From NCBI GenBank assembly GCA_011525695.1, contig WYBX01000051.1, positions 4,691 to 68,690 of the forward strand: DNA of 64,000 nt. The letters are read 5' to 3'. The position numbers were made by a program, and so were the translations under genes. This DNA is from Verrucomicrobiia bacterium (GTDB lineage: Bacteria; Verrucomicrobiota; Verrucomicrobiia; Opitutales; Opitutaceae). Below, in pieces: positions 21,058 to 46,915 of the stretch; positions within the stretch are counted from its first letter, which is position 1, and each line of letters opens with the position of its first letter. The notes below the pieces were generated by a model that made no database searches, was not told the origin of the DNA, and saw nothing but the letters and a program-made list of their open reading frames with translations.

Positions 21058-21172
21058 GGAAAAGGTAACGCCGCGGCGGGCCCCGAACCATACGTCGAAA
21101 GGACTAAACTGGAAATTCGCATCGCGGCTGCCGCCACGAAGGAATCGTGCTCATGGTTCGTAATCGAGGGAG

Positions 21173-21208
21173 AACGAGCACGAGCAAGAGCACGATTACG
21201 AGTACGAG
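21173..21208. repeat. Six tandem hexamers (ACGAG-type)
   Basis: The six units read AACGAG CACGAG CAAGAG CACGAT TACGAG TACGAG. They sit between the stop of the LuxR-type gene and the start of phhA. Confidence 0.6.
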
Positions 21209-21227
21209 GACAACAACCGACGGGCTG

Positions 21228-22427
21228 CTACCGGTTCAGCAGCGCGGCCACCCGCGCCCGGCTGCGGACCTCCAGCTTGGCGAAGATCGCGGCCAGCTGC
21301 GTCTTGATGGTGAGCGGGCTCCGGCGCAGTTCAGAGGCGATTTCCATGGTTCGTAGTCCCTCGCGCACGCGCATCGCGACCTCGCGTTCGCGGGCGCTGA
21401 GCCGGGCCAGCAAAGCCACCGCGCCGGGCGACAAGGGCCGGTTGCGATCGCCCCGCGGCCGGCGATAGTCGAGTTGCACCTGAAAGGCGGGCTGGAGAAC
21501 CGGATTCCCCTCGACCGGCCGGAGCGCGATGTTCGCATGGACCCCCAGCGTGAGGTCGCTCAGCACCCGTGAGCGGACGGCGGGGAGGCGCACTTCGTTC
21601 GCGGCTTTCTGCCATTGCGCCCGCATTTCGGCGCAGGCGGCCGCAAGCGGTGCGGGGACCTGGAAGCTGCCGTGGGGGTCGAGGGCGGCCGCGCGCCGCT
21701 CGCCATGGTTCCATACGGCGCAGGCATGCGCGCCCTCGCCATTGCACCACAACGGCCGGAGTTCCCAGTCCAGCAGCAGGAGTCCGACGGGAACTTCCTC
21801 GAGCATCGCGGCAAACTGCTCCCCGCGAAACATTGCCTCCTCATGGGCCAGCACGCGCAGGAGTGCGGTTTGGAAGTGCAATTGCAGGGTCTCGGCCAGC
21901 CGCATTTCCCGGACGGTGAAGTCGGGCTGATCCGCGGGCCGGTTGAAATTAAGCGTGCCCAAGACCGTGCGTCCGCGCCAGGCGACGACGCCAAGTTGCT
22001 TCTCCCAGTCTTCGCGGCGCATCACCCGTTCATGAAAGGTCGTGCCGCGCAGATCGCGCAGCGAGACGATGTCCGACAATCGGAACGCCACGGTGCCCCC
22101 GTGCAGCCCGAGCCAACCGCGGGCGGGATGATCGCGGCGCCATTCCGGCGGCGTGTGTGGGAGCCCATGCCGGTAGATCCGCCGTGGCACCCCCTTTTCG
22201 CCGGGCTCGATCTCGAGCGTCAGCGAAGCATGGGGGATGGCATCCCGGGCCAGCCCGCGCAGCCCCTGCCAGAGCCGGCGCTGGTCGAGCGCGGCATGCA
22301 CGCGCAGCAGCCCGCTGGCAAGCGGCAGCGGGGTGCCGTCAAGTACTGGCAGCGCTGCCAGGATCGTGGACGGGCGCGGGGCGGGGGACACGCCCGGCAC
22401 TAAGGCGGAACGGCGGGCCGGCGGCAA
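21228..22427 (-). CDS. LuxR-family transcriptional regulator with a large N-terminal sensor-like region
   Basis: The C-terminal HTH reads LSAREREVAMRVREGLRTMEIASELRRSPLTIKTQLAAIFAKLEV. I could not assign the N-terminal ~330 aa to any family. The ORF opens with a TTG, so the start is uncertain. Confidence 0.75.
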   Translation of the reverse strand: MPPARRSALVPGVSPAPRPSTILAALPVLDGTPLPLASGLLRVHAALDQRRLWQGLRGLARDAIPHASLTLEIEPGEKGVPRRIYRHGLPHTPPEWRRDHPARGWLGLHGGTVAFRLSDIVSLRDLRGTTFHERVMRREDWEKQLGVVAWRGRTVLGTLNFNRPADQPDFTVREMRLAETLQLHFQTALLRVLAHEEAMFRGEQFAAMLEEVPVGLLLLDWELRPLWCNGEGAHACAVWNHGERRAAALDPHGSFQVPAPLAAACAEMRAQWQKAANEVRLPAVRSRVLSDLTLGVHANIALRPVEGNPVLQPAFQVQLDYRRPRGDRNRPLSPGAVALLARLSAREREVAMRVREGLRTMEIASELRRSPLTIKTQLAAIFAKLEVRSRARVAALLNR

Positions 22428-22535
22428 CCCGACTTTGTTTTGGATTCACTCTTTTGGCGTATGGAAAATACCGCCGGCGGCACCTACATTCACCGCACCC
22501 CGCCGCGTCCCCGACGCGGTTCATTCCTTCCCACC

Positions 22536-23648
22536 ATGGCGACGACGTTTTTCGAAACCCACGCGGATCGCAGGGCGCAGGCAAATCCGCTCGGCATCAA
22601 GGGCATTGATCACATCGAGTTCATCGTCGACGACGCCGACCAGTGGCGGGACTACTTCGTGAACCGGTTCGGGATGGCCTGCCGGTTCTACGCGGACGAA
22701 GCCACCGGGGTGCGGGGCCGCCGGGTGCACGTCGTGGGTCAGGGGCGGATCAATTTTGTCGTGGCCGAGCCGCGGGGCAGCGGGCCGGAGGCGGATTTTC
22801 TGCGCTGGCATCTCGATCAGCATGGCAACGGGGTCCGGGACGTGGCCTTTCGGGTGAAGGATGCCCGCCATGCACTCGAGGAGGCTGCCCGCCGTGGCGC
22901 CCGGATCGTGCGCGGCCCGGACTCCCACGAGACGTTTAACGCCGGATCGATCGCCGCCTACGGCGATACGATCCATACCTTTCTAGAGCGAAAACCACAC
23001 ACTGACTTCGCTCCTGGCTACAAACCTGTCCCCGGTTCCTTTGAGGACGGGGACATCCATTTCGCAATGATCGACCATGTGGTGGCCAACGTGGAGCACA
23101 TGGAAGAATGGGTGAAGTACTACGAGCAGGTCTTTGGCTTCGATCTGTTCATGCACTTCGACATCAACACCGGCCGGAGCGCGCTGATGTCAAAGGTCGT
23201 CAGCTCGACCGATGGCTGGGTGAAGCTGCCGATCAACGAGCCCTCGTCGCAGAACTCGCAAATCCAGGAGTTCCTCGACCGCTACCAGGGGCCCGGGGTG
23301 CAGCACATCGCCCTGCTCACGCCCGACATTGTCACCACAGTCGCGGAGATGCGACGGATGGGGCAGGAGTTCCTCGACGTGCCCGAAAGCTATTACGATG
23401 CGGAGTTCGACCAGCGGGTCGGGGAAATTGACGAGGACAAGGCGGAATTGAGGCGGCTCAAGATCCTCGTGGACCGTGATCACGACGGGTACCTGCTGCA
23501 GCTCTTCACCAAGTGCGTGTTTGCCCGGCCGACGCTCTTCTTCGAGGTGATTCAGCGGCGCGGCCGCGCCCTGGGCTTTGGCGAAGGCAATTTCCGCGCG
23601 CTTTTCGAGGCGATCGAACGCGAGCAGGCCAGGCGGGGCTCGTTGTGA
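22536..23648 (+). CDS. hppD: 4-hydroxyphenylpyruvate dioxygenase
   Basis: The protein has two VOC-like halves and the motifs GIDHIEF, GVQHIAL, LLQLFT and FFEVIQRRG..GFGEGNFRALFEAIEREQ. The ATG at 22536 (MATTFFETH) fits the family length; the track ORF starts earlier, at 22440. Confidence 0.9.
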   Translation: MATTFFETHADRRAQANPLGIKGIDHIEFIVDDADQWRDYFVNRFGMACRFYADEATGVRGRRVHVVGQGRINFVVAEPRGSGPEADFLRWHLDQHGNGVRDVAFRVKDARHALEEAARRGARIVRGPDSHETFNAGSIAAYGDTIHTFLERKPHTDFAPGYKPVPGSFEDGDIHFAMIDHVVANVEHMEEWVKYYEQVFGFDLFMHFDINTGRSALMSKVVSSTDGWVKLPINEPSSQNSQIQEFLDRYQGPGVQHIALLTPDIVTTVAEMRRMGQEFLDVPESYYDAEFDQRVGEIDEDKAELRRLKILVDRDHDGYLLQLFTKCVFARPTLFFEVIQRRGRALGFGEGNFRALFEAIEREQARRGSL

Positions 23649-23675
23649 GCGAACCGCCGGCCGCAATCGCCACCC

Positions 23676-24863
23676 ATGCCGCATTACCTGAAGCTTGGCC
23701 GGATTCCGCCGAAGCACCATGTGCAGTTCCCGCGTGATCGCGCGGCGAGTTACCACGGCGAGGGATTGCATTATGAGCACGTGATCACGACCGACGGCTT
23801 CGATCGCGCCTATACCATCATGTATCATCTCCGGCCGCCGACACGCGTGAAGTCGATCGAGCCGGCCGGGCAGTGGGAACCGAAACGCGCCGGCGGAACG
23901 CCGCTCCGGCACCACCATATCCGGACGGCGGCAATGCCGCGGGCGGGGGATCCGTACACCGGTCGCGTGCCCTATCTGTTCAATCGCGAGATGACAGCCT
24001 GGCGGTGCCGGCCGGCGCGGGCCGATGCGGACTTCGACTTTTTTCGCAACGGAGGGGCGGATGAAATCATCTTTGTCTGGCGCGGGGGTGGGTGGCTGGA
24101 GAGCAATTTCGGGCGGCTGCGCTACCGGGCGGAAGACTACATCGTCATCCCCCGCGGGACGATCTACCGGCTCGTGCCGGACGATGTCTCCCAGGAGGAT
24201 TACCTCGTGCTCGAGTCCGCCTTTCCGGTGCGGATCCCATCACGCTACCTGAATCCGGAAGGCCAGATCCGGATGGGCGCTCCCTACAGCGAGCGCGACT
24301 TCCATGGCCCGTCCGAACTCGAGCCGGTCGATCGCGACCAGCCGCATACGCTTCTGGTCAAGGACGGCGCCCGGCTCACCCGGATGGTGCTCGCCCACCA
24401 CCCCTGCGATGTCGTCGGGTGGGATGGATTCATTTATCCGTACACCTTCAACGCGGCGGATTTCGAGCCGATCACCGGGACGGTGCACCTGCCACCGCCG
24501 ATCCACCAGACCTTCGAAATCCGCGGCTATGTCGTGTGCACCTTTGCCCCGCGCCATCTCGATCATCATCCGCAGGCCGTGCGCGTCCCCTGGGCGCACG
24601 ACAACACGGAGGCCGACGAGGTGCTCTTCTATGTCCGCGGCAACTTCGGATCCCGAAAGGGGGTCGAGCCGGGCTCGTTCACGCTGCATCCGCGGGGCAT
24701 CCCACACGGACCCCATCCCGGAACCACGCTGCCGAGCCTGCAGGCCGAGCGGACCGAGGAACTGGCGGTCATGTTCGACACGCAGAACTCGCTCGAATTG
24801 ACCGCCGAGGCGCTGGCGGCGGACGATGCGAAATACCCGCTGAGCTGGCTGGGCGAAACCTAG
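23676..24863 (+). CDS. hmgA: Homogentisate 1,2-dioxygenase (short bacterial type)
   Basis: The N-terminus YLKLGRIPPKHHVQF and a cupin-like core with HPRGIPHGPHPG are present. The gene lies 27 nt downstream of hppD on the same strand. Confidence 0.8.
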   Translation: MPHYLKLGRIPPKHHVQFPRDRAASYHGEGLHYEHVITTDGFDRAYTIMYHLRPPTRVKSIEPAGQWEPKRAGGTPLRHHHIRTAAMPRAGDPYTGRVPYLFNREMTAWRCRPARADADFDFFRNGGADEIIFVWRGGGWLESNFGRLRYRAEDYIVIPRGTIYRLVPDDVSQEDYLVLESAFPVRIPSRYLNPEGQIRMGAPYSERDFHGPSELEPVDRDQPHTLLVKDGARLTRMVLAHHPCDVVGWDGFIYPYTFNAADFEPITGTVHLPPPIHQTFEIRGYVVCTFAPRHLDHHPQAVRVPWAHDNTEADEVLFYVRGNFGSRKGVEPGSFTLHPRGIPHGPHPGTTLPSLQAERTEELAVMFDTQNSLELTAEALAADDAKYPLSWLGET

Positions 24864-25637: not shown

Positions 25638-26816
25638 ATGAGTGACATCGTCATCCTCTCGGCCACGCGAACGCCGCTCGGCTCGTTTCAAGGCGCGCTG
25701 GCAACGGTGCCCGCGACCCGGCTGGGGGCGACGGCAATCCGGGCGGCGGTCGATCAGGCGGGTTTGGCGGTGACGGACGTCACGGATGTCCTCATGGGTC
25801 AGGTGATCCAGGCGGGAGCGGGCCAGGCTCCTGCGCGGCAGGCGGCACTCCATGCGGGGCTGCCCGCGTCGGTGCGCTGCACCACCGTTCACAAGGTGTG
25901 CGGCAGCGGGCTGGAGTCGGTCAGGATCGGGGCTCGCGCGCTGGTGAGCGGTGAGGCCACCTGGGTGGTGGCAGGCGGGATGGAGAACATGAGTGCGGCG
26001 CCCTACCTGCTGCCGAAGGCGCGCGAAGGGTACCGGCTTGGACACCAGCAGGTGGTTGATGCGATGATTCACGACGGACTGTGGGATCCCTACAGCAACC
26101 TGCACATGGGGAGTTGTGCCGAACAGTGTGCCCGGAAATATCATTTCACGCGGGAGCAACAGGATGCTTATGCGATCGAAAGCTTCCGCCGTGCCCAGCG
26201 GGCGCAGCAGGATGGGCGCTTTGCCGCTGAAATCACGCCGGTCGAGGTCAGGGACGCAAAAGGCCGGACCAGCCGCGTCGAACAGGACGAAGGCCCGGGA
26301 AAGGCGAACTTCGAACGGATGCCAGGGCTCCGGCCGGCCTTTGAGCCTGATGGCACCATCACCGCGGCCAATGCCTCGACCTTGAATGACGGGGCTGCGG
26401 CAATGGTCCTGGCGCGGGCTGATACCGCCCGGGGGCGCGATTTGAAACCACTGGCCCGGATTGTCGCATTCGGGTCGCATGCCCAGGAGCCGGGCTGGTT
26501 CACGACCGCGCCGGTGCCAGCCGCGCGGGAAGCGTTGCAGCGCGCAGGGTGGCAGGTGGGAGAGGTCGATCTTTGGGAGGTGAACGAGGCCTTCGCGGTG
26601 GTGCCCCTCGCATTCATCCAGGAACTGGGGTTGCCGCCTGAGCGGGTCAACGTTCGAGGAGGGGCGATTGCGCTGGGCCATCCGATCGGCTGCAGCGGCG
26701 CCCGAATCATCGTGACCCTGCTGGCGGCGCTGCGTGAGCAGGGGGCGAGACGGGGGCTGGGTGCAATTTGCATTGGGGGCGGCGAGGCACTGGCAGTCGC
26801 GGTGGAACTGCTTTGA
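25638..26816 (+). CDS. Acetyl-CoA C-acetyltransferase (thiolase II)
   Basis: Thiolase motifs are present: VHKVCGSGL (active-site Cys), NEAFAVV, GGAIALGHPIGCSGARI and CIGGGEA. A GGGAGG sequence sits 7 nt upstream of the ATG at 25638. Confidence 0.9.
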   Translation: MSDIVILSATRTPLGSFQGALATVPATRLGATAIRAAVDQAGLAVTDVTDVLMGQVIQAGAGQAPARQAALHAGLPASVRCTTVHKVCGSGLESVRIGARALVSGEATWVVAGGMENMSAAPYLLPKAREGYRLGHQQVVDAMIHDGLWDPYSNLHMGSCAEQCARKYHFTREQQDAYAIESFRRAQRAQQDGRFAAEITPVEVRDAKGRTSRVEQDEGPGKANFERMPGLRPAFEPDGTITAANASTLNDGAAAMVLARADTARGRDLKPLARIVAFGSHAQEPGWFTTAPVPAAREALQRAGWQVGEVDLWEVNEAFAVVPLAFIQELGLPPERVNVRGGAIALGHPIGCSGARIIVTLLAALREQGARRGLGAICIGGGEALAVAVELL

Positions 26817-26850
26817 GCGGAAGGCGACCAAGGAACAGGACGCGTCCTCA

Positions 26851-28899
26851 ATGCCCCCTGAAGCGATCGCCATGCACCTTGCGGATGCTCCCAGCTCGAA
26901 CCAGATCCTCTGGCATCCTGACGATCATGCATGGCCCCGCGATTCCCACCTCGCCCGTTTCATGCGCCAGCACGGATTCCGTTCCCTGGCGGAACTTCGC
27001 GCCGAATCGGTCCGTGACACCGCCTGGTTCTGGGACGTTGCACTGCGCGACATGGGAATCGAATGGTCGCGGCGCTACACGCGGGTGCGCGATGACTCGG
27101 GCGGATTCCCGTGGACCGCGTGGTTTACCGGCGGCCAGGTCAACGTGACCCACAACTGCCTCTACCGGCATGTCCGCGACGGGCACGGCGCTGAGATCGC
27201 GCTGTATTGTGAAACCGACTCGGGCCGGCCGGAGGAGGCGCGCCCGGTGACGTTTGCGGAGCTCTCGGATGCGGTGACGCAATGCGCCAGCGCGCTGCGT
27301 GCGGCAGGGGTGCAGCGTGGCGACAGCGTTGCACTTTATGCGCCGATGCAGGCCCAGACGGTAATCGTGATGCTGGCGGCGATGAAGATTGGGGCCAGGT
27401 TCGTTCCGATCTTCTGCGGCTATGGCGAGGAGGCGCTGCGCGAGCGGCTGGCGGGATGTGCCGCCCGGATCCTGTTTGCCCGCGACACGCTCAATCGCCG
27501 CGGGCAGCAACTGCCGACCGGCCGGACAGCGCGCGCGGCGGCGGCCCGGGTGCCCGGGCTCGACCGCGTCGTTGCGCTGGACACCGGGGAATGGCAGGGA
27601 TTCCTGGATACGGGTTGCTGCATCCTGCCGCACGACCGGGCCCCCGCGCGGGACCGGATCCCGACGTTCTGCGGCGAGCGCACCGAGGCGGAGGAGCCCT
27701 GCCTGATCCTCTACACCAGCGGCACGACCGGGCGCCCGAAGGGCACGATTCATACCCATGCCGGGTGCCTGGCGCAGATGGGCAAGGAACTGCGTTATGC
27801 GTTCGATGTGCGACCGGGGGAGCCCTTTTTCTGGCTGACCGACATCGGCTGGATGATGGGGCCATGGGAAATCATCGGCTGCCTCATGTATCGGACGCCG
27901 GTCGTGCTGCTCGACGGCGCCCCGAACTTTCCCGACAGCGACCGCATCTGGCAGATTTGTGAACGGCTCGGCGTCGTCACGCTCGGGTGCTCGCCCACGC
28001 TGGTGCGGCAGCTCCGGCGGGCGCAGGACGGCCGCGGCCCGGGGGGATACGACTTGTCGCGGCTGCGGGTGCTGGGCTCGACCGGGGAGGTGTGGGACGA
28101 GCCCAGTTATCGCTGGTTTTTCGAACAGGTTGGAGGCGGCCGCTGCCCGATCATGAACATTTCCGGCGGCACCGAAATTGTCGGCTGCCATCTGCAGCCC
28201 TATTCCCTGGACCCGCTCAAGCCATGTTCGCTCGGGGGGGCCGCGCTCGGCATGGATGTCGATGTCTTCACCGATGAAGGCCAGCCGGCAGCGCGCGGCA
28301 CGATGGGGCATCTGGTCTGCAAGCAGCCGGCGCCTTCGATGACCAAGGGATTCCTGGCGGAGAACGAGCGTTATCTTGAAACCTATTTTGCCCGGTTTCC
28401 CGGCGTCTGGTATCACGGTGACTGGGCGAAGGTGGACGAGGACGGGCAGTGGTTTCTCTTCGGTCGCACGGATGATACGTTCAAGGTCGCCGGCAAGCGG
28501 GTGGGGCCGGGCGAGGTCGAAGGTGCATTGGCTTCACATCCGGCAGTCAGTGAGGCGGCCGTCATCGGCGTGCCGGATGAGGTGAAGGGCACCGCGCTGG
28601 TGGGTTTCGTGGTCCTGAAGCCGAAAGTGACGAGCGACGGCGGGCATGGCGAGGACGGGGTGCCGATGACGCCCAGCGCGGAGGAACTAATTGCACACGT
28701 GGCCGGCCGGCTCGGAAAGCCACTGGCCCCGCGGGAAGTCCTGAAGGTCGGGGCCCTGCCCAAGACCCGCAGTGGAAAAATCGTGCGCGGGATGATGACC
28801 CGGGCGTATCTGGGCGAACCGGCTGGCGATCGTTCAAGTGTAGACAACCCGTCGGCCCTCGATGCAATCGTCGCGCGGGGGCGGCCACAACCTGCATGA
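26851..28899 (+). CDS. AMP-forming acyl-CoA synthetase (acetyl-/acetoacetyl-CoA synthetase-like)
   Basis: The AMP-binding motif LYTSGTTGRPKG and the C-terminal KTRSGKIVR are present, on an ACS-like N-terminal region. Substrate cannot be decided from the sequence. The start is uncertain (26851 or 26872). Confidence 0.8.
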   Translation: MPPEAIAMHLADAPSSNQILWHPDDHAWPRDSHLARFMRQHGFRSLAELRAESVRDTAWFWDVALRDMGIEWSRRYTRVRDDSGGFPWTAWFTGGQVNVTHNCLYRHVRDGHGAEIALYCETDSGRPEEARPVTFAELSDAVTQCASALRAAGVQRGDSVALYAPMQAQTVIVMLAAMKIGARFVPIFCGYGEEALRERLAGCAARILFARDTLNRRGQQLPTGRTARAAAARVPGLDRVVALDTGEWQGFLDTGCCILPHDRAPARDRIPTFCGERTEAEEPCLILYTSGTTGRPKGTIHTHAGCLAQMGKELRYAFDVRPGEPFFWLTDIGWMMGPWEIIGCLMYRTPVVLLDGAPNFPDSDRIWQICERLGVVTLGCSPTLVRQLRRAQDGRGPGGYDLSRLRVLGSTGEVWDEPSYRWFFEQVGGGRCPIMNISGGTEIVGCHLQPYSLDPLKPCSLGGAALGMDVDVFTDEGQPAARGTMGHLVCKQPAPSMTKGFLAENERYLETYFARFPGVWYHGDWAKVDEDGQWFLFGRTDDTFKVAGKRVGPGEVEGALASHPAVSEAAVIGVPDEVKGTALVGFVVLKPKVTSDGGHGEDGVPMTPSAEELIAHVAGRLGKPLAPREVLKVGALPKTRSGKIVRGMMTRAYLGEPAGDRSSVDNPSALDAIVARGRPQPA

Positions 28900-30941
28900 G
28901 TGCCGACGCGCCGGTCACGTTTACGGTCGACGAAGAACGCGTCGGCTGGATCGTCTTCAATGCTCGCGGCGCCCGGGCCAATGTTTTCAATCCCGCGACC
29001 CAGGCGGCTCTGGCCGCGGCGTTGGACGCCGCCGCGGGGTCCGGGGCGCGAGCACTCGTGGTCTGCAGCGCCAAGGAGCGGATCTTCATTGCCGGTGCGG
29101 ACCTGTCCTGGCTGCTGTCGCTCTCCGATCAGCCTGCGGCGACGGCATTTTCCCGGGACGGCCAGCGGCTTTTTCAGCGGCTGGCGGACTTTGCGGCGCC
29201 GGTGGTTTGCGCAATCCATGGCGCGTGTGCGGGCGGCGGATTCGAACTTGCACTGGCCTGCCACTGGCGGATTGCGACGGATGATCTGGCGACGCGGATC
29301 GGGCTTCCGGAGACAGCCTTGGGCACGATCCCCGGTTGGGGCGGATGCGCCCGGTTGCCGCGGTTGATTGGGATCAAACCGGCACTCGAACACATCATCG
29401 CGGGCCGGCTGCTCCCGGCCCGCGAGGCAATGCAGGCAGGGCTCATCCATTGCGTGGTGCCAGCTGCCGAACTCAGGAGCCGGGCCAGGGCTGCGGCGCT
29501 ACGGCTTGCCACGCATGGTGTGCCTCCGCCGCCGCCGCAACCGGCGCCATTGCCCGGCTATTATGCCGAATTGCGTGCAGCAACGCGGACCAGGACGCAT
29601 GGCCGGCTGCCGGCGCCGGTCGCCGCAATTGATGTCGTCGAGCAGACTGCCGGGCTGCCCTTGGAAGTCGCGCTGGGGATCGAGGCACGTTTGTTTGGCG
29701 AGGTCACGGCGGGTGACGTATGCAAGAACCTGATTCATGGTTTCCTCCTGCGGGAGGCGGCGCGGAAGCGGACGCTGGCAGGCTGGTTCGATGGCGATGT
29801 CGGGGGTGGAGCGGCGGGCGCTGGCGACGGGCGGCCGAAGGACTTGCAGCGGATCGGCATTGCGGGGGCGGGCGTGATGGGTTCGGGGATCGCGCAATGG
29901 CTGGCGGCGCGCGGCTTCGAGGTCGTTCTGCGCGACGTCGAGCCGGAGTTCGTCGAGCGTGGGATTGCCAGCGCGCGCGGGCTTTTCGATGAGGCGGTCA
30001 GGCGGGGCCGCCTCATGCGCGAGGATGCCAGCACGGGACTCCGTCGGATCAGCGGCACGACCAGCTGGGACGGCTTTGATCGCTGTGACCTCGTGATCGA
30101 CGCGATCGTGGAGTCCCGGGTGGCCAAGCAGGCGCTGTTTGCCGAACTCTCCGGAATCGTCCGGCCTGATACGCTGTTGGCCTCGAACACGTCGGCACTG
30201 CCGCTGGAGGAAATTGCGGGGCACGTGCCGCATCCCGAGCGGACGCTGGGGCTGCATTTCTTCAATCCGGTGAGCCGGATGCCGCTGGTGGAGCTGGTGC
30301 TGGCGCGCGCAACGTCGCCGGCTGCCGCCGAACGGGCACTGGGGCTGGTCCGGGCGCTGGGCAAGTCGCCGGTGATCTGCCGCTCCTCGCCGGGGTTTCT
30401 GGTCACCCGGGTGCTGTTCTTTTATCTCAACGAGGCAGTGCGGTTGTGGGAACAGGGGCTGCCGACGCTCGCGATTGACTCGGCGCTGCGCGACTTCGGT
30501 TGGCCGATGGGCCCGCTGCGGCTGATTGATGAGGTGGGGATTGATGTCACGGACTCGATTTTTGACGAGCTGGCCCATTACTTTCCGGAACGCTTTGTGC
30601 GAACAACGGCGTGCAGCCGGCTGCTCGCGGCGGGATTGAAGGGCCGGAAGCAGGGGGCCGGCACCGGATTCTGCAGCTACGTTCCCGAGGAGCGACTCAA
30701 CGACTCGCGAACCCGCCAGGTGGCTGGACGCGTGGGCGAACTGTCCCTGCCGGCGGATGAAATCTCGGCCCGATTGATGCAGGTGATGGTTGCCGAGGCG
30801 CAGCGGTGTCTCGACGAAGGGGTCGTGCGATCGGAGGGCGATATCGACTTCGCGCTGAACAGCGGCGCGGGTTTTCCGGCCTTCCGCGGCGGGCTGATGC
30901 GTTGGGCGCAGCGCACCGGCTTAGCCACTCATATGCCATGA
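28896..30941 (+). CDS. Bifunctional enoyl-CoA hydratase / 3-hydroxyacyl-CoA dehydrogenase (FadB/FadJ-like)
   Basis: The N-terminus is a crotonase fold (FIAGADL, GGGFELALACH). It is followed by the NAD-binding motif IAGAGVMGSGIA and a 3-HACDH C-terminal domain. The ATG overlaps the upstream stop (ATGA at 28896-28899). Confidence 0.85.
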   Translation: MSADAPVTFTVDEERVGWIVFNARGARANVFNPATQAALAAALDAAAGSGARALVVCSAKERIFIAGADLSWLLSLSDQPAATAFSRDGQRLFQRLADFAAPVVCAIHGACAGGGFELALACHWRIATDDLATRIGLPETALGTIPGWGGCARLPRLIGIKPALEHIIAGRLLPAREAMQAGLIHCVVPAAELRSRARAAALRLATHGVPPPPPQPAPLPGYYAELRAATRTRTHGRLPAPVAAIDVVEQTAGLPLEVALGIEARLFGEVTAGDVCKNLIHGFLLREAARKRTLAGWFDGDVGGGAAGAGDGRPKDLQRIGIAGAGVMGSGIAQWLAARGFEVVLRDVEPEFVERGIASARGLFDEAVRRGRLMREDASTGLRRISGTTSWDGFDRCDLVIDAIVESRVAKQALFAELSGIVRPDTLLASNTSALPLEEIAGHVPHPERTLGLHFFNPVSRMPLVELVLARATSPAAAERALGLVRALGKSPVICRSSPGFLVTRVLFFYLNEAVRLWEQGLPTLAIDSALRDFGWPMGPLRLIDEVGIDVTDSIFDELAHYFPERFVRTTACSRLLAAGLKGRKQGAGTGFCSYVPEERLNDSRTRQVAGRVGELSLPADEISARLMQVMVAEAQRCLDEGVVRSEGDIDFALNSGAGFPAFRGGLMRWAQRTGLATHMP

Positions 30942-31162: not shown

Positions 31163-34100
31163 ATGTCCCCCGTTGCCACCACCGGTCTCTCGGTCGAACT
31201 GAAGCGCAAACTCCTGCTCACCATCCTGGAGAGCCGGCACGGGGATTTGCGGGAGGAAAACCTCAACCGCCAGGGCAAGGGCCATTTCCATGTCTCGGGT
31301 CGCGGGCACGAGGCGATGGCGGCCATCGGCATGCTGATGCAGCCCGACGATTATGCCTGCCCCTATTATCGGGACCGGGCGTTCGTGCTCGGCCGGGGCG
31401 TGACGACCCGGCAGCTGGCGCTGGATTACATGGCGAAGCGCGAATCTTCGTCGCATGGCCGGCAGATGCCGTCGCATTACAGCTATCCCGAATTTCACAT
31501 CTGGAGCGTTCCGACGCCGACTGCCTCGCAACTGCTCCCGGCGTGCGGGATGGCCTGGGGAATCCAGCTCGACGGCTTGAAGGCGCTCACCGTGGCGACG
31601 GTGGGCGAGGCGGCGACCCGGCAGGGCGATTTTTTCGAAGCGGTGGCCTTTGCCCGGGAGCGCCAGCTTCCGCTCCTGTTCGTGGTCGAGGACAATGGCT
31701 ATGGCATTTCCAGCCCGACGCGGCGGACGAATCCGCTGGCGCTGAACGTGCTCGCGCAGGATGCCTGGACCCTGGTGGACGGCTGGGACGTCGAGCGGGT
31801 CCATGTGGCAGCCGCGGGGCTCCTGGCGCAGATCCGGGCGGGCGGGGGGCCGGCGTTCCTCTGGCTTAAGCTGGAGCGGCTTTCGAGCCATACGAGCTCG
31901 GATGATCAGAAAATCTACCGCTCGGCGGAGGAACTTTCCACGCTCGAGCAGCGCGATCCGCTTGCGGTGCTCACGCGGCAGATGATTGCCGAGGGCGAAA
32001 TCAGCGAGGACGAGTTCGCCCGGCTCGAGCAGGAAATCAAGGAGCGGGTCCGGGCCGATTACGCGGCGGCCGAAAGGGCGGAGAACCCGCTGCCCACCGA
32101 GTTGGAGGCCAACGTGGTCACGACGCTGCCGGATCTCGACGAGGAGATCTTCAAGCCCGGCCGGTACCGGATGGGGGACATGATCAACCTGACCTTGCGG
32201 GCCGGGCTGGATGTCGAGCCCAAGCGGATGATCTTCGGCGAGGATGTGGAGGATCCCAAGGGCGGCGTGTTCACGCTGACGCGGAAGCTTTCGACGGATT
32301 TTCCGGGTCAGGTCCACAATTCGCCGCTGGCGGAATCGACCATCCTCGGTGTCGCCTGCGGGCTGGCGAGCTATGGCCGGCGGCCGGTCTTCGAACTCCA
32401 GTTCATCGACTTCATTTATCCCGGCTGGAACCAGCTGGTGACGAACCTGGCCACGTTGCGCTGGCGCACGTTTGGAAAATGGACCTGTCCGGCGGTGATC
32501 TACGCCCCGTATGGAGCCTACCTGCCGGGGGGATCCCTGTGGCATTCGCAGGCAAATGAGGCCGCGCTGGCGCACTTTCCCGGTTTGAATGTCCTGATTC
32601 CCAGCACGCCGGAGGATGCTGCCGGCCTGTTGTGGACCGCCATGCACGGCGAGGATCCGACGCTGGTGCTGATTCCCAAGCACCTGCTCTGGGTCGAACG
32701 CGATGTACCCCGGGCCATCACCGCGGTTCCAATCGGTCACGCCCGACGGGTGCAGGCCGGGGAGGACGTGACGATGGTCGCGTGGGGCAACACGGTGGAA
32801 AAGGCGGAGGAGGCGGTGGCACAGTTGGGGGACGAGGTGAACGTTGATCTCCTGGACCTGCGTTCCATTGTGCCCTGGGACCGCGAAATGATCGAGGAAT
32901 CGGTGCGAAAGACCGGCCGGCTGATCGTGGTGCAGGAGGACACGGAGAATTGCAGTGTCGGCCAGATGATCATTTCGCATCTCTGCGGCCGGCCGGACGT
33001 GTGGAGCCGGTTCGTGAGCCCGCCGCTGCTGGTTTCGAAAGGCAATGTCATGATCGGCTACAATCCGATCTATGAATACACGGCGCTGCCGGATGCCCGG
33101 CGGATTGTGGCGGCGGTCCGGCGCGTGATGAGCGGCACGCTGGGCCCGCGCGGAGCAGCGGAGTCGTTGCCGGTGGCGGCTCCCTCGCCGGCGGCGGGAC
33201 TGCACCGCTCCGGCAGGCGGGTTCCACCTGAGCCAGTCCCGCCGAAGCCTCGCCCGGAATCCGCGGCGCTGGCCGGAACGCCATCCGAAGTTCCCATTGT
33301 CGTGCCCGTGATGGGGGAGGGGATCCGGGCGGCGCGGGTGGTTTCCCTGCTGAAAAAGCCGGGCGAGCCGGTTGCACTCGACGATGCCTTGTGCGAGGTC
33401 GAGACCGACAAGGCGGTGTACCCGATCCAGTCCTCGCATGCGGGGACGTTCCGCAAGTGGCATTGCGCGGTGGATGACGTGGTGGAAATTGGACGCGAGA
33501 TCGGGATCATGGCGGTCGCGGCCGGCACGGTGCCGCCCGCTCCTGCCGGGGACGCCGCTCAGCGCGAAGATGTGCGGCCGGCGGCGGCGCCGCCGAGCCT
33601 GCAGGAATTGCAGACCACCTCCCGTTTTACGCCGCCACCGTCGTCCCGTTCCGGCCCCCCTGCGGCCCCGGCGCTCTCGCCGGCGATCACCCGCCGGCTG
33701 GCTGGAGTCGTTCCCGCCAATCTGCAGCTCGATGCGCCGTGGAGCGGTATTGGCGCGGCCCGGGCGGCCGCGAAGGGGCGGGGATTGGATTGGTCGCCCT
33801 CATTGATGTTCGCCTGGTGTGTGACCCGGGCGATGGAGCGGCACGCCGCCTTCCGCCGGCTGGTGGCCAAGGATGGCACGATTGTGCAGCAGGAGGCATT
33901 TGATCTCGGAATTGCCGTGGCACTCGAGGAGGACCGGCTTGGCACGGCGGTGATCCGCTCGGCTGCGCAACATGGCTGGGAGGAGTTCGTCCACGCCTAT
34001 GAAACGGCGATCAACGAGGTTCGCGGCGGCCGAGTCGACGACGTGCAGGCTCCGGTCAATATCACAAGCCTCGGGGGATTCGGAGTGGAAGTGGCGACCC

Positions 34101-34303
34101 CGATCGTGGTGCCGCCGGCGATGGCCACGCTCTTCATCGGCAAGGCCCACGAGCGGATGATCAACGATGGCGGGGTCGTGCATCCGGTCGAGGTCATCAC
34201 CCTGTCGCTCACCTTCGATCACAAGGTCGTGAATGGCGCCGGGGCCGCGGCGTTCCTGAATGACGTGAAGCAGCAGATTGCGAATTTCCAGATTGGGAAG
34301 TGA
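31163..34303 (+). CDS. Fused 2-oxoacid dehydrogenase: E1-alpha + E1-beta + lipoyl domain + E2 acyltransferase catalytic domain
   Basis: Four modules lie in one ORF:
- E1-alpha (TPP): GHFHVSGRGHEA..., VGEAATRQGDFFEA...VVEDNGYGIS.
- E1-beta: FGEDVEDPKGGVF, NSPLAESTILG, LWHSQ.
- Lipoyl domain, after Pro/Ala linkers: CEVETDKAVYP.
- E2 catalytic core: LSLTFDHKVVNGAGAAAFL.
The track ORF opens with a TTG at 31121; the ATG at 31163 is preferred. Confidence 0.8.
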   Translation: MSPVATTGLSVELKRKLLLTILESRHGDLREENLNRQGKGHFHVSGRGHEAMAAIGMLMQPDDYACPYYRDRAFVLGRGVTTRQLALDYMAKRESSSHGRQMPSHYSYPEFHIWSVPTPTASQLLPACGMAWGIQLDGLKALTVATVGEAATRQGDFFEAVAFARERQLPLLFVVEDNGYGISSPTRRTNPLALNVLAQDAWTLVDGWDVERVHVAAAGLLAQIRAGGGPAFLWLKLERLSSHTSSDDQKIYRSAEELSTLEQRDPLAVLTRQMIAEGEISEDEFARLEQEIKERVRADYAAAERAENPLPTELEANVVTTLPDLDEEIFKPGRYRMGDMINLTLRAGLDVEPKRMIFGEDVEDPKGGVFTLTRKLSTDFPGQVHNSPLAESTILGVACGLASYGRRPVFELQFIDFIYPGWNQLVTNLATLRWRTFGKWTCPAVIYAPYGAYLPGGSLWHSQANEAALAHFPGLNVLIPSTPEDAAGLLWTAMHGEDPTLVLIPKHLLWVERDVPRAITAVPIGHARRVQAGEDVTMVAWGNTVEKAEEAVAQLGDEVNVDLLDLRSIVPWDREMIEESVRKTGRLIVVQEDTENCSVGQMIISHLCGRPDVWSRFVSPPLLVSKGNVMIGYNPIYEYTALPDARRIVAAVRRVMSGTLGPRGAAESLPVAAPSPAAGLHRSGRRVPPEPVPPKPRPESAALAGTPSEVPIVVPVMGEGIRAARVVSLLKKPGEPVALDDALCEVETDKAVYPIQSSHAGTFRKWHCAVDDVVEIGREIGIMAVAAGTVPPAPAGDAAQREDVRPAAAPPSLQELQTTSRFTPPPSSRSGPPAAPALSPAITRRLAGVVPANLQLDAPWSGIGAARAAAKGRGLDWSPSLMFAWCVTRAMERHAAFRRLVAKDGTIVQQEAFDLGIAVALEEDRLGTAVIRSAAQHGWEEFVHAYETAINEVRGGRVDDVQAPVNITSLGGFGVEVATPIVVPPAMATLFIGKAHERMINDGGVVHPVEVITLSLTFDHKVVNGAGAAAFLNDVKQQIANFQIGK

Positions 34304-34436
34304 GCAGTGGATTCACGGAGGGCCGGGCTGCCTCCTTCCGCTGCAGCCGAAACACCGGTTCGGCCTTGTTCTGGATTCAAATCGATCGAAGGATTCAGCC
34401 ACGCCCGCGCTTGTTTCAGCTGGGCGGCTTTCGACC

Positions 34437-40607: not shown

Positions 40608-42020
40608 ATGAATTCGATCACGCCCTCGTTTCGCCCGGAACTGGATCCGGAATTCCTCCCGGCCGCATTGTGGAACCACGCCTATCGGGCCATGGTTGCC
40701 GCCGACCGGACCGCGCGGCCGTTGACCCTGGCGCTGGTCCGCGCGGATGGCACGGCGAGTCTGCGCACGGAGCGCGTGCTCGGTCGCGATCATCCGGCGG
40801 CGGCGCTGACGCTGACCTTCGTGGAACGGCTCCTGAAATTCCTGTTGTGGCAGAGGGGCGGGAGCCAGGTGCTCGTGGCGGGCGCCGATGAGATCGCGGC
40901 GGAGCTGGCGCGATCCTATGCGCCGGACGGGGCACGCGCCTTCGATTACAAGTTCATGGGAGCGACCATCGATCGCCGGCCGTTCAGGGTGCAGGCAGTT
41001 CCCGAATCCGCATTGCCGCCGGAGCATGTTCCGGCCCAGGCCATCGGCCGGCATCTCGAGGGCTGCCGGATCGGCTTCGATTTGGGCGGCAGCGACCGCA
41101 AGGCGGCTGCCGTCATCGATGGCAAGGTCGTCTACTCGGAGGAGATTCGCTGGGATCCCTATTTCCAGGCGGATCCGCAGTATCATATCGCAGGGGTCGA
41201 CGATTCCCTGCGCCGCGCCGCCGCGCATCTCCCGCGGGTCGATGCCATCGGTGGCAGCTCGGCCGGCGTTTACGTGAACAACGAGGTGCGCGTCGCGTCG
41301 CTATTCCGTGGCGTCCCGCCGGAGCTCTTCGAGCGTCACATCCGCCGGATGTTCTTCACGCTGCAGGAACGCTGGGGTGGGGTTCCCTTCGAGGTGGCGA
41401 ACGACGGCGAGGTGACCGCGCTGGCCGGATCGATGGCATTCGACACGACTGGAGTGCTTGGCGTCGCGATGGGCACGAGCCAGGCGGCGGGCTATGTCCG
41501 GCCCACCGGCGATCTCACGCCCTGGCTGAACGAGCTCGCGTTCGCCCCGATCGATTACCGACCGGAGGCACCGCGCGACGAATGGTCCGGCGATCTCGGC
41601 TGTGGCGCCCAGTATTTTTCACAGCAAGGGGTCGCCCGGCTGGCGGTGCCGGCAGGGTTTGATTTTGCGCGCGAGGTCCCACTGGCCGATCGGCTGGTCG
41701 AGGTGCAGCGGGCAATGGCCGCGGGCGACCCACGCGCCCGCCGCATCTATGAGGCAATCGGGATTTCGCTGGGATACGGGGTGGCGCATTACGCGGACTT
41801 TTATGATCTTTCCCTCGTGCTCGTCCTGGGCCGGGTCACGTCGGGGCCCGGGGGAGAGGTGATCCTCGCGCGTGCGGCGGAGGTGCTGCGGGGTGAGTTT
41901 CCGGTGCTGGCCGAAAGAATCCGCCTGGAAATGCCGGACGAGCACACCAAGCGGCATGGCCAGGCGGTGGCGGCCGCGAGCCTGCCGGCACTGGCGAGGA
42001 AGACTCCTCCCCAGCCGTAA
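40608..42020 (+). CDS. ROK-family / ASKHA-fold sugar-kinase-like protein with N-terminal extension
   Basis: The phosphate-1 motif is IGFDLGGSDRKAAAV, on an actin-like ATPase core. I did not see the classical ROK zinc motif. The first ~150 aa are an unassigned extension. Confidence 0.65.
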   Translation: MNSITPSFRPELDPEFLPAALWNHAYRAMVAADRTARPLTLALVRADGTASLRTERVLGRDHPAAALTLTFVERLLKFLLWQRGGSQVLVAGADEIAAELARSYAPDGARAFDYKFMGATIDRRPFRVQAVPESALPPEHVPAQAIGRHLEGCRIGFDLGGSDRKAAAVIDGKVVYSEEIRWDPYFQADPQYHIAGVDDSLRRAAAHLPRVDAIGGSSAGVYVNNEVRVASLFRGVPPELFERHIRRMFFTLQERWGGVPFEVANDGEVTALAGSMAFDTTGVLGVAMGTSQAAGYVRPTGDLTPWLNELAFAPIDYRPEAPRDEWSGDLGCGAQYFSQQGVARLAVPAGFDFAREVPLADRLVEVQRAMAAGDPRARRIYEAIGISLGYGVAHYADFYDLSLVLVLGRVTSGPGGEVILARAAEVLRGEFPVLAERIRLEMPDEHTKRHGQAVAAASLPALARKTPPQP

Positions 42021-42319
42021 GGATCGCCAATTGGGCACGGGATGATTGGCCGGCGTTGCTGGCGGCGAGCAACAGCGGGGCGCTGCCCTGCTTGCCCGGG
42101 GGCCGCCGCCATCCTGCCCGCAGACGGGCCCGGGCGGGCTCCGTCAAAGCTCGTCCAGATCAAAATGGCGCAGGGCGGGCGTTTTCATTGCCGGCACGAG
42201 GGGAGTCAATCCGCACGTGCAAATCCAGCTTGCCTGCGTCGCCGGGGATTGTCCGCATACCTGCGCCGAATGCCTCCGGGAGCGAACCCCTTCCCGGCCC
42301 ACCCACCCACTGGATCCCC

Positions 42320-45300
42320 GTGCGTCGACTCGTTGCCCCCATTCTGACGGCCATTGCCCTGCCCGTCTCCGCGGTTGCCGCGGATCTGCGGCCGGTGTCC
42401 TTCAATCGTGACATCCGGCCGATCATGGCGGACACGTGCTTTCTCTGCCATGGCCCGGACGCCAGTTCCCGCGAGGCGGGCATGCGGCTCGATCTCCGGG
42501 AGGAGGCCCTGAAACCGACGCGCAACGATGTCATCCCGATCGTTCCCGGCCGGCCGGAGGAAAGTGAAATCATCTTCCGGATCACTGATGATCTGGAACC
42601 GATGCCACCGGAGGAAGCGCACAAGCGGCTAACGTCGGAGCAAAAGGAACTGATTCGCCGTTGGGTGGCGGAGGGTGCCGTTTACGAGGTGCACTGGGCC
42701 TACGCGCCGCTGGTGCGTCCGCCGCTCCCGGATTCGGGGGTGGGCGGGAGCAGCCACCCGATCGACGCGTTCGTTCGCGCCCGACTCGCGGCGGAAGAGA
42801 TCGAACCGTCGCCCGAGGCGGACAAGTCGCGGCTGCTCCGCCGGCTTTCGCTCGATTTGACGGGGTTGCCGCCCACTCCCGCCGAACTCGGGGCCTTCCT
42901 CGCCGACCCGGATCCCGGGGCGTACGAGCGTCAGGTGGAGCGGTTGCTGGCGTCGCCCCACCATGGCGAGCGGATGGCGGTCTGGTGGCTCGATATCGCC
43001 CGATTCGCCGACACGGTCGGTTTTCACGGCGACCAGAACCAGCGGATCTTCCCCTATCGCGATTACGTCATCAACGCGTTCAATGCGAACAAGCCGTTCG
43101 ATCAGTTCACAATCGAGCAACTGGCCGGTGATCTCCTGCCGGGAGCCACCGAGGAGCACCGGATCGCCACCGGCTACAACCGGCTCAACATGATGACGCG
43201 GGAGGGCGGCGCGCAGCCGGCGGAATACATCGCGAAGTACGGGGCCGAGCGGGTGCGCTCCGTCTCCGCCGCCTGGCTGGGCAGCACGTTTGGCTGCGCC
43301 GAATGCCACGATCACAAATTCGATCCGATCAAGGCCAGCGACTTTTATGAACTGCAGGCGTTCTTCGCCGATTTGAAGCAGTGGGGCGTGTACAGTGATT
43401 ACGACTACACCCCCAACCCCGATCTCGCCGGATTCAACAACGATTACCCGTTTCCCCCCGAGATTGAGGTGCGCAGCCCCTATCTGGCGGCCCGCCAGCG
43501 GCAGCTGGAGGCGGAACTCGCCGACCACCGTGCTGCCAGCCGCGCGCGCCGGGAAAACGTCGAGGTCGCGCTGGCCTTCGAAGCCTGGATCGATCAGGCG
43601 CGCGCCTTCCTCGCCCGGGAGCCGTCCGGCTGGTCGCAGCCCGGCCTGGTCGCGGTGCTGCAGAAGAAGGCTGTCCCGGACGGTGAGCCGGTTCCCTCCG
43701 CCCCGGACGGAATTGTCTGCCTGTCCCAGGAGCTGCGGAGCGGCGAGTCGCTCCGCCTGACCCTGTCGGCGTCGCGCGATCCGATTGCTGCCGTGCGGAT
43801 CGATTTCACCGAGGCTCCCCGCGCTGATCCCGATGGCCGGAAAGACAACTCGCGCAATCGGGTCACGCTCGCCGCCGTCGTGCGCTCCGCCGGCGGGACG
43901 GAGCGCAAGGTCGGCTTCGTCTTTGCGGATGCCGCGGCCAAGGATCCCCACTTCCTCGGCGGCGCGGAGGCGATCGGGATTGTGCGGGGCTGGAGGATAC
44001 CACGCGGCGCGGCGGACGCCGTCCGGTCGGGCATCTGGCTGCCGGCGCAGCCGCTCCGGCTCGCGGAGGGCGAGGTGCTCGAGCTCAAGCTGAGCGGCGA
44101 GGCGGTGCCGCCGTTTCGCGTGTTCACTTCACCCTTCGGATCGGCCGATGCGCTCAGCTCGGCTTCCGCGGCCGTCCGGGAGGCGATCATGATTCCGCGG
44201 GAGCGGCGGCTGGAATCGCAGGACGAACTGCTTGCCGACGCCTGGCTCCTGAGCACGGCGTGGGATCCGGCGGCCTTCGACCGGCACCATGACTTGGCGG
44301 AGAAGATCCGGGAAACCCGGGACGGTCGCGCCTGGACCATGGTTTCGCAGGCCGCGGAGCCGCGGCCGGTCCGGGTGCTGGCCCGCGGCGACTGGCAGGA
44401 TGAGTCGGGCCCGCTGGTGCTGCCGGCCACGCCGAGTTTCCTGCCCGGCCGGCGCGAAAGCACCGCGGAAAAGCGGCTCACCCGGCTGGACTTCGCCCGC
44501 TGGCTCGTCTCCGCGGAGAATCCAATCACTGCGCGCACGGTGGTGAACCGGCTCTGGGCGATGTTCTTCGGCACCGGGCTCAGCGCCACCCTCGACGATC
44601 TCGGAGCCCAGGGCGAAGTCCCGTCGCACCCGGAATTGCTCGAGTGGCTGGCCTGCGAATTCCGGGAGCAGAGCTGGGATCTCCGGCACATGGTCCGGCT
44701 GCTGGTGACCAGTGCCACCTACCGGCAGGGCAGCAACCTGCGTCCGGAACTGCTCGAGCGCGACCCGGGAAACCGGTTGCTGGCGGCGCAGAACCCCCGC
44801 CGGCTCGAGGCGGAATTTGTCCGGGACAACGCCCTCGCGATCGCCGGCAACCTCAACCTCCGGGCCCTCGGCGGCCCCAGCGTGAAGCCGTATCAGCCCG
44901 CCGGCTACTATGCCGCGCTCCAGTTCCCCGATCGCACGTACGTGGCCAGCGACGACGACGAGCAGTGGCGCCGCGGGGTGTACATGCACTGGCAGCGGAC
45001 ATTCCTGCACCCGATGCTGGCGAACTTCGATGCTCCGGCACGGGACGAATGCGCGGCGCAACGCGTCCCGAGCAACACGCCGCAGCAGGCACTCACGCTG
45101 CTCAACGACCCGACCTTCCTCGAGGCGGCACGGCTTTTCGCCGCGCGGCTGCAGCGCGAGGCCGACGGCGACGAGGGCCGGATCCGCCGTGCATTTCTCA
45201 TCGCATTGAGCCGCGATCCGCGACCTGCCGAGCAGGCCTCCCTGCTCGGCTTCTTGCGCGAAGTCCGCCGGCACTATGGCGCCAATGTGGCCGAGGCCGG

Positions 45301-45418: not shown

Positions 45419-45466
45419 TGGCTGCCCCCCACTCCACGTTCCCGAGAACGCAGACCTGCTTCCGCC

Positions 45467-46915
<1,449 letters not shown>

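Follow-up and report, generated by a model that had tools for sequence, protein, structure and literature searches.

The 64,000-nucleotide stretch of contig WYBX01000051.1 from a Verrucomicrobiia bacterium of the Opitutaceae (hereafter the window, meaning the whole stretch of DNA that was analyzed) carries, near its middle, an open reading frame (ORF) in which the E1alpha, E1beta and E2 components of a 2-oxoacid dehydrogenase complex are joined in one polypeptide. The original prediction, made from the letters of the window without database searches, described this ORF as a complete E1alpha/E1beta/lipoyl/E2-core fusion, and proposed that its peripheral-subunit-binding domain (PSBD) had degenerated and might have become dispensable through the fusion. 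The features of the ORF are listed below, with positions in the window and residues in amino acids (aa); pLDDT is the predicted local distance difference test score of an AlphaFold2 model, and ThDP is thiamine diphosphate.

31163..34303, + strand: E1alpha-E1beta-lipoyl-E2core fusion ORF, 1046 aa plus stop, ATG start
31244..32089, + strand: E1alpha module, E1_dh, aa 28-309 (Pfam E = 2e-43)
31604..31702, + strand: ThDP/Mg2+ motif G148-E149-A150-X26-D177-N178-G-Y180, from the translation
32090..32170, + strand: alpha-beta junction, aa 310-336, between E1_dh and Transket_pyr, partly of low pLDDT
32171..33133, + strand: E1beta module, whose fold reaches about aa 657 (match to 1um9_B at aa 340-656, E = 1e-57)
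aa 337-509, + strand: Transket_pyr (Pfam E = 2e-27)
aa 525-607, + strand: Transketolase_C (Pfam E = 2e-23)
33134..33283, + strand: linker 1, aa 658-707, Ala/Pro-rich, disordered, pLDDT < 50
33284..33517, + strand: lipoyl domain, aa 708-785, beta-barrel strands in the model, K750 codon at 33410-33412
aa 712-781, + strand: Biotin_lipoyl (Pfam E = 1e-12)
33518..33667, + strand: linker 2, aa 786-835, disordered, pLDDT < 50, includes PSLQELQ at aa 811-817
33668..34300, + strand: E2 acyltransferase catalytic domain, aa 836-1046, catalytic S969, D1019-H1020 and N1024
33674..33724, + strand: LSPAITRRLAGVVPANL, aa 838-854, the alleged degenerate PSBD, here assigned to helix 1 and strand 1 at the start of the catalytic domain
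aa 876-1042, + strand: 2-oxoacid_dh (Pfam E = 5e-29)
34346..34364, + strand: terminator-like hairpin just 3' of the fusion stop, a consensus match only

The reading frame was found to be continuous, as had been claimed from the letters. The ORF ends with its stop codon at 34303 (+), with an alternative TTG start at 31121, and a public protein from an independently assembled 9.7-kb contig (P0001) is identical to its product over all 1046 aa. The G+C content of third codon positions (GC3) stays between 0.77 and 0.87 along the entire ORF in a single frame, both linkers covered, and this constancy gives no sign of a frame change. Neither a stop codon nor a second start signal is present at the module junctions. 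Around the gene, a promoter scan of the window gave matches at consensus level only, and terminator-like sites were fewer in the window than in shuffled sequence. An Rfam scan of the whole window returned no RNA family at the gathering score, and therefore no riboswitch upstream of the fusion gene.

To place the protein among its relatives, we used the best 120 clusters in a collection of 5.8 billion proteins, and 80 related loci, each with 10 kb on either side, from a scan of one genome per GTDB species. At least 120 clusters (65-80% identity, 1000-1055 aa; one exception, a 948-aa entry) share the five Pfam domains, and an ORF of the fusion family was present in 71 of the 80 loci, 61 of these ORFs being at least 980 aa long. 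Represented among the loci are Opitutaceae, Oleiharenicola, Lacunisphaera, Didemnitutus, Chthoniobacterales/Ca. Udaeobacter and one Blastopirellula metagenome-assembled genome (MAG); the closest (76-82% identity) are from Opitutaceae/Opitutales and mark the window as part of an Opitutaceae genome. The fusion is intact in the cultured isolate Oleiharenicola lentus, and Opitutus sp. ER46 has it too. A further search with P0133, which is 39% identical to the window protein, uncovered a sister family that is widespread in the Planctomycetota and has its domains in the same order. Conservation within the Verrucomicrobiota, which had been left as a check, is thus borne out, and it extends to the sister family of a second phylum. 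One eukaryotic member of the P0133 family was seen, P0331 (1204 aa) of the anaerobic protist Anaeramoeba ignava, possibly acquired by lateral transfer.

Paralogous E1 or E2 genes were not found near the fusion in the related loci, the extra matches being frameshift-split copies of the fusion only. In four MAG loci (L071, L077, L079 and L080) the fusion gene lies in 2-4 adjacent ORFs that jointly span most or all of the protein; these split copies come from a few assemblies with names suggesting long reads, and are probably indel or frameshift assembly errors instead of true split genes. NCBI and JGI already contain members of the family, which are labelled only generically ("thiamine pyrophosphate-dependent enzyme", "2-oxo acid dehydrogenase subunit E2", "bfmBAB", "2-oxoisovalerate dehydrogenase E1 component"). 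The open-access literature yielded no published account of an E1alpha-beta-lipoyl-E2 chain, which is not proof of absence. The novelty of the architecture had been overestimated, given how widespread it is in Verrucomicrobiota and Planctomycetota and that it is already deposited.

Domain annotation agreed with the predicted layout. In a Pfam scan of the whole protein, in which matches at E <= 0.1 were reported, the E1 part scored 148.8 (E1_dh), 93.4 (Transket_pyr) and 80.2 bits (Transketolase_C) against cut-offs of 22, 27 and 25.9, the lipoyl domain 47.7 bits (Biotin_lipoyl, cut-off 22.1), and the E2 core 101.9 bits (PF00198, cut-off 23). All five domains expected for such a fusion were found above their cut-offs, in a layout that is conserved, and E3_binding was the only family proposed for annotation that was not found. 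The closest solved structures for the two E1 halves are the alpha and beta chains of Thermus thermophilus 2-oxoisovalerate dehydrogenase (1um9_A, E = 1.6e-37; 1um9_B, E = 1e-57), together with Geobacillus E1p and the branched-chain 2-oxoacid dehydrogenases (BCKDH) of Pseudomonas and human. For the C-terminal part, the nearest structures are E2p of E. coli, M. tuberculosis and Geobacillus; it aligns with these cores and carries the 2-oxoacid_dh match at E = 5e-29, and its assignment as an acyltransferase core stands.

The AlphaFold2 monomer has folded E1alpha, E1beta, lipoyl beta-barrel and E2 core regions, with disorder at 660-705 and 789-828; its other low-confidence loops may be due to subunit partners that are absent from a monomer model. 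When the full-length model was searched with Foldseek, E1beta chains were matched at template modelling (TM) scores of 0.75-0.81, and the entire E1alpha-beta unit matched single-chain E1o and transketolase; an integrative E2p model was also matched. The list consisted mostly of E1 and transketolase chains and is little informative on the E2 part. Both linkers (658-707 and 786-835) contain about 20% Ala and 12-13% Pro. Across the family linker 1 is unconserved and 28-60 aa long, and linker 2 is unconserved, Ala/Pro/Ser-rich and 11-79 aa long (median 48). Within linker 2 a short motif, PSLQ(Q/E)LQ (PSLQELQ in the window, aa 811-817, 33593-33613), was seen in 22 of 43 close relatives from the Opitutaceae, whereas a more diverse set of 62 members had it in only 4; it could be a docking motif.

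The translation reads G148-E149-A150 ... E176-D177-N178-G179-Y180, E747-T-D-K750-A and F1018-D-H1020-K-V-V-N1024-G, which places GEA at 148-150, EDN at 176-178, ETDKA at 747-751 and FDHKVVNG at 1018-1025, as first read. Conservation was counted over 62 full-length members of the fusion family. No variation occurs at N178, H243, E391, H461, K750, D1019, H1020 or N1024; at position 969 there is Ser in 61 members and Thr in one, and at position 180 there is Tyr in 58. Position 149 is Asp in 57 of the 62 and Glu in 5, so that E149 of the window is a minority variant of a family norm GDA. The ThDP motif aligns column by column with GDG...ENNFYAIS of 1um9_A, and its spacing and ligands are for that reason canonical. 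In this enzyme class the Mg-site ligands are a carboxylate, an Asn and a Tyr, and the other catalytic residues, a ThDP-activating Glu of the beta subunit and catalytic His residues, have established roles in BCKDH and pyruvate dehydrogenase (PDH) E1; the residues predicted to define the Mg site of this E1 class are all retained in the fusion protein. The description of the motif as atypical (GEA...EDN) was accordingly right in its letters, but functionally the motif is not atypical, as the carboxylate at 149, the 26-residue spacing, N178 and Y180 are kept. Lipoylation is predicted at the invariant K750 of ETDK750A, and in the E2 core, which aligns with E2p cores, the invariant D1019, H1020 and N1024 are in place. 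All of the putative catalytic residues that were checked are either invariant or conservatively substituted.

The stretch originally read as a degenerate PSBD, LSPAITRRLAGVVPANL (aa 838-854), shows good conservation and runs into the core without a break. In the AlphaFold2 model it falls in a helix (840-846) and the beginning of a strand (852-859), followed by a further helix (861-872). Four proteins with less divergent cores (P0125, P0122, P0133 and P0135) have a 2-oxoacid_dh match that starts a little before the equivalent stretch, at profile positions 3-14, and a multiple alignment puts the window's LSPAITRRLAGVVPANL against N-terminal core residues of the same four proteins. Taken together, the predicted helix and strand, the Pfam starts in the homologues and the alignment identify the stretch as the N-terminal part of the catalytic domain, and we rejected it as a PSBD remnant.

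A canonical PSBD is nevertheless absent, as the original prediction held. PF02817 (E3_binding) gave no match at E <= 0.1 on the whole fusion protein, and it is missing from the precomputed Pfam lists of all relatives, the Planctomycetota sister family included. When linkers were scanned in isolation for four members (both linkers of the window protein and linker 2 of three others), no Pfam family was matched at E <= 10. The spacer between lipoyl domain and core shrinks to 11 aa in the shortest members, and two loci, that of Blastopirellula and L065, have one of only about 20-30 aa. A PSBD is about 35 residues long, and we judge a spacer of some 20-30 aa too short to hold one together with its own spacers. 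On this evidence from sequence, the fusion family has no PSBD. In complexes of the heterotetramer type a single PSBD sits on the two-fold axis of E1, and it serves as the binding site for E3 as well (PMC2663715). With E1 attached covalently, its docking through a PSBD has plausibly become dispensable, and we propose that the domain was lost because E1 is already attached to the core. That explanation, put forward with the fusion, agrees with the absence of PF02817 and with spacers of 11-30 aa in some members but is incomplete: since the PSBD also docks E3 (PMC2663715), its loss leaves the recruitment of E3 unexplained. The window itself offers no E3 gene, as first noted, for the E3 redox-disulfide motif, searched as a regular expression, was not present in any of its six frames, and no large ORF of the window matched Pyr_redox.

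These results lead us to propose that the product of the gene is a functional E1(alpha-beta)-lipoyl-E2 component in a single chain, most likely that of a branched-chain (leucine-type) 2-oxoacid dehydrogenase, a reading to which we give a probability of roughly 0.7. The fusion is real and conserved, and we regard it as almost certainly functional; one chain carries all of the modules and predicted catalytic residues for decarboxylation, reductive acylation of the lipoyl group and transfer to CoA. Two chains would pair through their E1 halves to form an (alpha-beta)2 unit equivalent to the alpha2beta2 heterotetramer, and this unit would bind ThDP/Mg and decarboxylate the 2-oxoacid. The acyl group would then pass reductively to lipoyl-K750, on a domain that has a disordered linker of about 50 residues on either side; for comparison, the natural lipoyl tether of Geobacillus E2p has about 50 residues and spans about 90 Å (PMC2663715). 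The lipoyl domain would swing to the C-terminal acyltransferase (H1020/S969), presumably in its usual trimer, where acyl-CoA would be made, and a separately encoded E3 would re-oxidize the dihydrolipoyl group. Substrate, oligomeric state and the route by which E3 reaches the lipoyl arm are what we infer here, while the stoichiometry of E1 to E2 is fixed at 1:1 per chain.

The proposed substrate draws on the neighboring genes, which in the window are the following.

28896..30941, + strand: FadJ/FadB-like enoyl-CoA hydratase / 3-hydroxyacyl-CoA dehydrogenase, upstream and co-directional
26734..28899, + strand: acyl-CoA synthetase of the acetate/acetoacetate/propionate-CoA ligase group, overlapping the start of the FadJ-like gene
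20206-24863, both strands: aromatic amino-acid catabolism cluster, upstream of the synthetase and FadJ-like genes

Every NCBIfam match of the synthetase is below its curated cut-off. The aromatic cluster consists of a phenylalanine-4-hydroxylase-like gene (-), a LuxR-type regulator (-), a 4-hydroxyphenylpyruvate dioxygenase (HPPD; +, scoring above the cut-off of its equivalog) and a homogentisate-1,2-dioxygenase-like protein so divergent that it reaches 58 bits where the cut-off is 511. Together with the synthetase and FadJ-like genes, we read these as a cluster for ketogenic amino-acid catabolism. The window also has a PaaX-like regulator, 15 kb from the fusion gene.

Neighborhoods were compared over 72 loci, 71 fetched plus the window. 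A gene of the same cluster as the FadJ/FadB-like one, or a shorter 3-hydroxyacyl-CoA dehydrogenase (3HCDH) gene, lies directly upstream of the fusion in 22 of them. An acyl-CoA carboxyltransferase, an enoyl-CoA hydratase and/or an HMG-CoA-lyase-like gene is found within 10 kb in 15, belonging to Opitutales and to other Verrucomicrobiota lineages including Chthoniobacterales, and an acyl-CoA mutase is nearby in 5. At least one of these catabolic neighbors is present at 33 of the 72 loci. The context is not universal, and in many Chthoniobacterales loci the neighbors are housekeeping genes such as aspartate kinase and the Der GTPase. Hydroxyacyl-CoA dehydrogenase, carboxyltransferase, hydratase, HMG-CoA-lyase and mutase functions are later steps of leucine, valine and isoleucine degradation, and it is for this reason that a branched-chain substrate is favored.

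Several observations weigh against the reading that we prefer. No NCBIfam equivalog reaches its curated cut-off, the best models being those of PDH E1alpha and E1beta and not of BCKDH, and the E2 core scores higher against E2p than against E2b structures. With equivalogs below cut-off, similarity alone does not fix the substrate, and its assignment rests on gene context, which is found in fewer than half of the loci. For BCKDH as such (EC 1.2.4.4 / 2.3.1.168), the balance is no equivalog at cut-off, a closest solved E1 that is Thermus E1b, and leucine-type neighbors in 15 of 72 loci. Motif search in six frames showed no E3 gene close to the fusion, neither in the window nor in 79 of the 80 related loci, and a docking site for E3 was not identified in the fusion protein. 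The AlphaFold2 model is monomeric, with a mean pLDDT of only 71 and a predicted TM score (pTM) of 0.58. The sole locus match to a pyridine-nucleotide-disulfide oxidoreductase was at L008 (833-2296, +; CLNFGCVPSK), about 8 kb upstream of the fusion, and it is not conserved elsewhere.

Other explanations differ from ours on the chain itself or on what it does. The fusion could be an artefact of assembly or gene calling, with a missed stop or frameshift between separate E1 and E2 genes, and the split copies at L071, L077, L079 and L080 speak for this; but uninterrupted ORFs of about 1000-1060 aa in 62 independent genomes, one of them an isolate, at least 120 protein clusters with the same layout, and a constant GC3 in one frame across linkers whose junctions have no stop or second start effectively refute this explanation, to which we assign next to no probability. 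A divergent but functional PSBD might instead persist between lipoyl domain and core and still dock E3. The sequence LSPAITRRLA, superficially like a PSBD start (SPAARRLA), was counted for this possibility, as was the conservation of PSLQ(Q/E)LQ in linker 2 of one subclade. The stretch in question, however, aligns with helix 1 and the first strand of the catalytic domain and is predicted to fold in the same way, linker 2 lacks order and conservation and can be reduced to 11 aa, and the linkers have no Pfam match even at E <= 10, which makes a hidden PSBD highly improbable.

A more serious competitor keeps the fused architecture and changes the substrate to pyruvate, 2-oxobutyrate or an aromatic 2-oxoacid (phenylpyruvate or 4-hydroxyphenylpyruvate). 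The top NCBIfam models, PDH E1alpha (TIGR03181, 183 bits) and PDH E1beta, the nearness of the E2 core to E2p of E. coli, M. tuberculosis and Geobacillus, and the housekeeping surroundings in Chthoniobacterales, such as a central enzyme might have, all suit this idea. So does the position of the window gene, which follows the phenylalanine hydroxylase/HPPD/homogentisate-dioxygenase-like cluster with the PaaX-like regulator 15 kb off. The PDH scores nonetheless fall far short of their curated cut-offs, the branched-chain enzyme of Thermus is the nearest E1 of solved structure, and the carboxyltransferase, enoyl-CoA hydratase and HMG-CoA-lyase-like neighbors recur in two orders, so we consider a substrate other than a branched-chain one unlikely, though a real alternative. 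It is also conceivable that the enzyme is a specialized acyl-loading one, which, as in secondary metabolism, loads the acyl group onto a carrier protein or some other acceptor and is not a CoA-forming catabolic dehydrogenase, a notion suggested by distant relatives in which the same front end is followed either by a KASIII/FabH-like domain or by an E2 core and an acyl carrier protein (ACP) domain. The window family, in contrast, ends in a plain E2 core without a carrier domain, has kept 60-80% identity across two orders, and has catabolic or housekeeping neighbors among which no biosynthetic genes were seen; we hold such a role to be very improbable.

If the single chain is accepted, its assembly may also differ from that of known complexes. 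E2 cores are trimer-based 24-mers or 60-mers, joined by a 'knob and socket' contact of the C-terminal helix. The C-terminal tail of the core reads A-N-F-Q-I-G-K in the window, with a family consensus of E-x-F-x-[I/L]-P plus 1-12 residues; the tail of E. coli E2p is longer by one residue. The window tail is without the three-residue insertion of the actinobacterial E2p type, which locks those proteins as trimers (bioRxiv 10.1101/2020.07.24.212647). We tentatively suggest, as a possibility that falls short of an even chance, that the single-chain protein of the Planctomycetota-Verrucomicrobiota superphylum (PVC) builds an assembly of its own, in which obligate E1 dimers are covalently tied to E2 trimers and E3 is recruited by a new route. 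The E1 dimers would then either link one trimer to another or sit along the two-fold edges of a cage, a 24-mer for instance taking 12 of them. E3 would be held by a short linear motif such as PSLQ(Q/E)LQ or by a site on the fused E1, or alternatively would act through purely transient encounters, like those in the glycine cleavage system. Such an assembly would be the second natural exception, after that of the Actinobacteria, to the textbook plan of an E2 core plus PSBD.

The 2-oxoacid dehydrogenase complexes are textbook examples of non-covalent megadalton assemblies, built round an E2 core to which E1 and E3 are brought by a small binding domain, and the actinobacterial OdhA/E2p exception has drawn considerable structural work. 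The superphylum of Verrucomicrobiota and Planctomycetota appears to have arrived at a different solution, with E1 fused to its own lipoyl arm and E2 core and the binding domain missing. Such a fusion fixes the stoichiometry of E1 to E2 and removes the competition of E1 and E3 for the PSBD, and it raises the questions of how E3 is recruited, whether a fusion of dimer and trimer gives a cage or an open network, and whether active-site coupling is altered. There is also a practical consequence, in that the generic names may cause metabolic reconstructions for abundant soil Verrucomicrobiota such as Udaeobacter to miscount the E1 and E2 subunits of the complex for branched-chain amino-acid catabolism.

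Elsewhere in the window, two giant divergent ORFs at 2443-8001 (-) and 8162-15640 (+), of 1852 and 2492 aa, contain passenger-associated-transport repeats (PATR), and one of them also has a PEP-CTERM sorting motif. The region 40608-46915 holds a 470-aa ORF without a Pfam match, followed by a PSCyt1/PSCyt2/PSD1 protein and a DUF1501 protein, a pairing typical of Planctomycetes-Verrucomicrobia genomes.

Compared with heterotetramer-type complexes (Thermus thermophilus E1b, 1um9; Geobacillus stearothermophilus PDH, 1w85/3duf; human and Pseudomonas BCKDH), the fusion protein has the same E1 folds and catalytic residues, the lipoyl DKA lysine, the DH...(D/N)G plus Ser of the E2 core, and Ala/Pro-rich tethers of about 50 residues. 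It differs in that E1alpha, E1beta and E2 are one polypeptide at 1:1 E1:E2, and in being without the PSBD that docks E1 and E3 in those complexes (PMC2663715). Its predicted features are those that define a heterotetramer-type E1 and an E2, the PSBD excepted. Among the solved structures matched, no E1/E2 fusion appeared other than actinobacterial OdhA/Kgd (8p5s, 8p5t, 2yid), and there too an E2-type core is covalently joined to a ThDP-dependent E1. In OdhA, however, the E2 core is N-terminal to a homodimer-type E1o, and there is no lipoyl domain, so that the lipoyl arms of E2p are borrowed (bioRxiv 10.1101/2020.07.24.212647). The window protein has the order E1alpha-E1beta-lipoyl-core, a heterotetramer-type E1 and a lipoyl domain of its own. 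With this opposite domain order, and with the OdhA model NF008907 scoring 40.2 bits against a cut-off of 878, over the E2 core only, an OdhA/Kgd-type fusion was rejected.

The closest relatives without E2 are fused E1alpha-beta proteins of about 650-700 aa ("2-oxoisovalerate dehydrogenase E1 component"/bfmBAB; P0130, P0132, P0134, P0136 and locus L075), which share 44-50% identity over aa 17-657 and stop after the E1beta C-terminal domain, whereas the window protein continues with linker, lipoyl domain, linker and E2 core. Other relatives, at about 1120-1160 aa (P0151, P0155, P0159, P0161 and P0332-P0336), join E1_dh, Transket_pyr, Transketolase_C and a lipoyl domain to a KASIII/FabH-like ketosynthase in place of an E2 core, with 33-43% identity to the fusion over E1alpha-beta. 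P0155 is encoded by the cyanobacterium Anthocerotibacter panamensis, whose genome is complete, and its only annotation is beta-ketoacyl-ACP synthase 3. The layout of these proteins suggests that fatty-acid or polyketide synthesis may be primed directly from 2-oxoacids via the lipoyl arm. A further protein, P0131 (1227 aa), carries E1alpha-beta, lipoyl domain, E2 core and a C-terminal phosphopantetheine-binding (ACP) domain, and points to a putative carrier-protein-loading variant of the single-chain design. The Planctomycetota sister family (P0133, P0285, P0287, P0290 and others), for which PF02817 is likewise unlisted, is 35-39% identical to the window protein and has EANKG as its lipoyl motif against ETDKA in the window, with the same order of domains.

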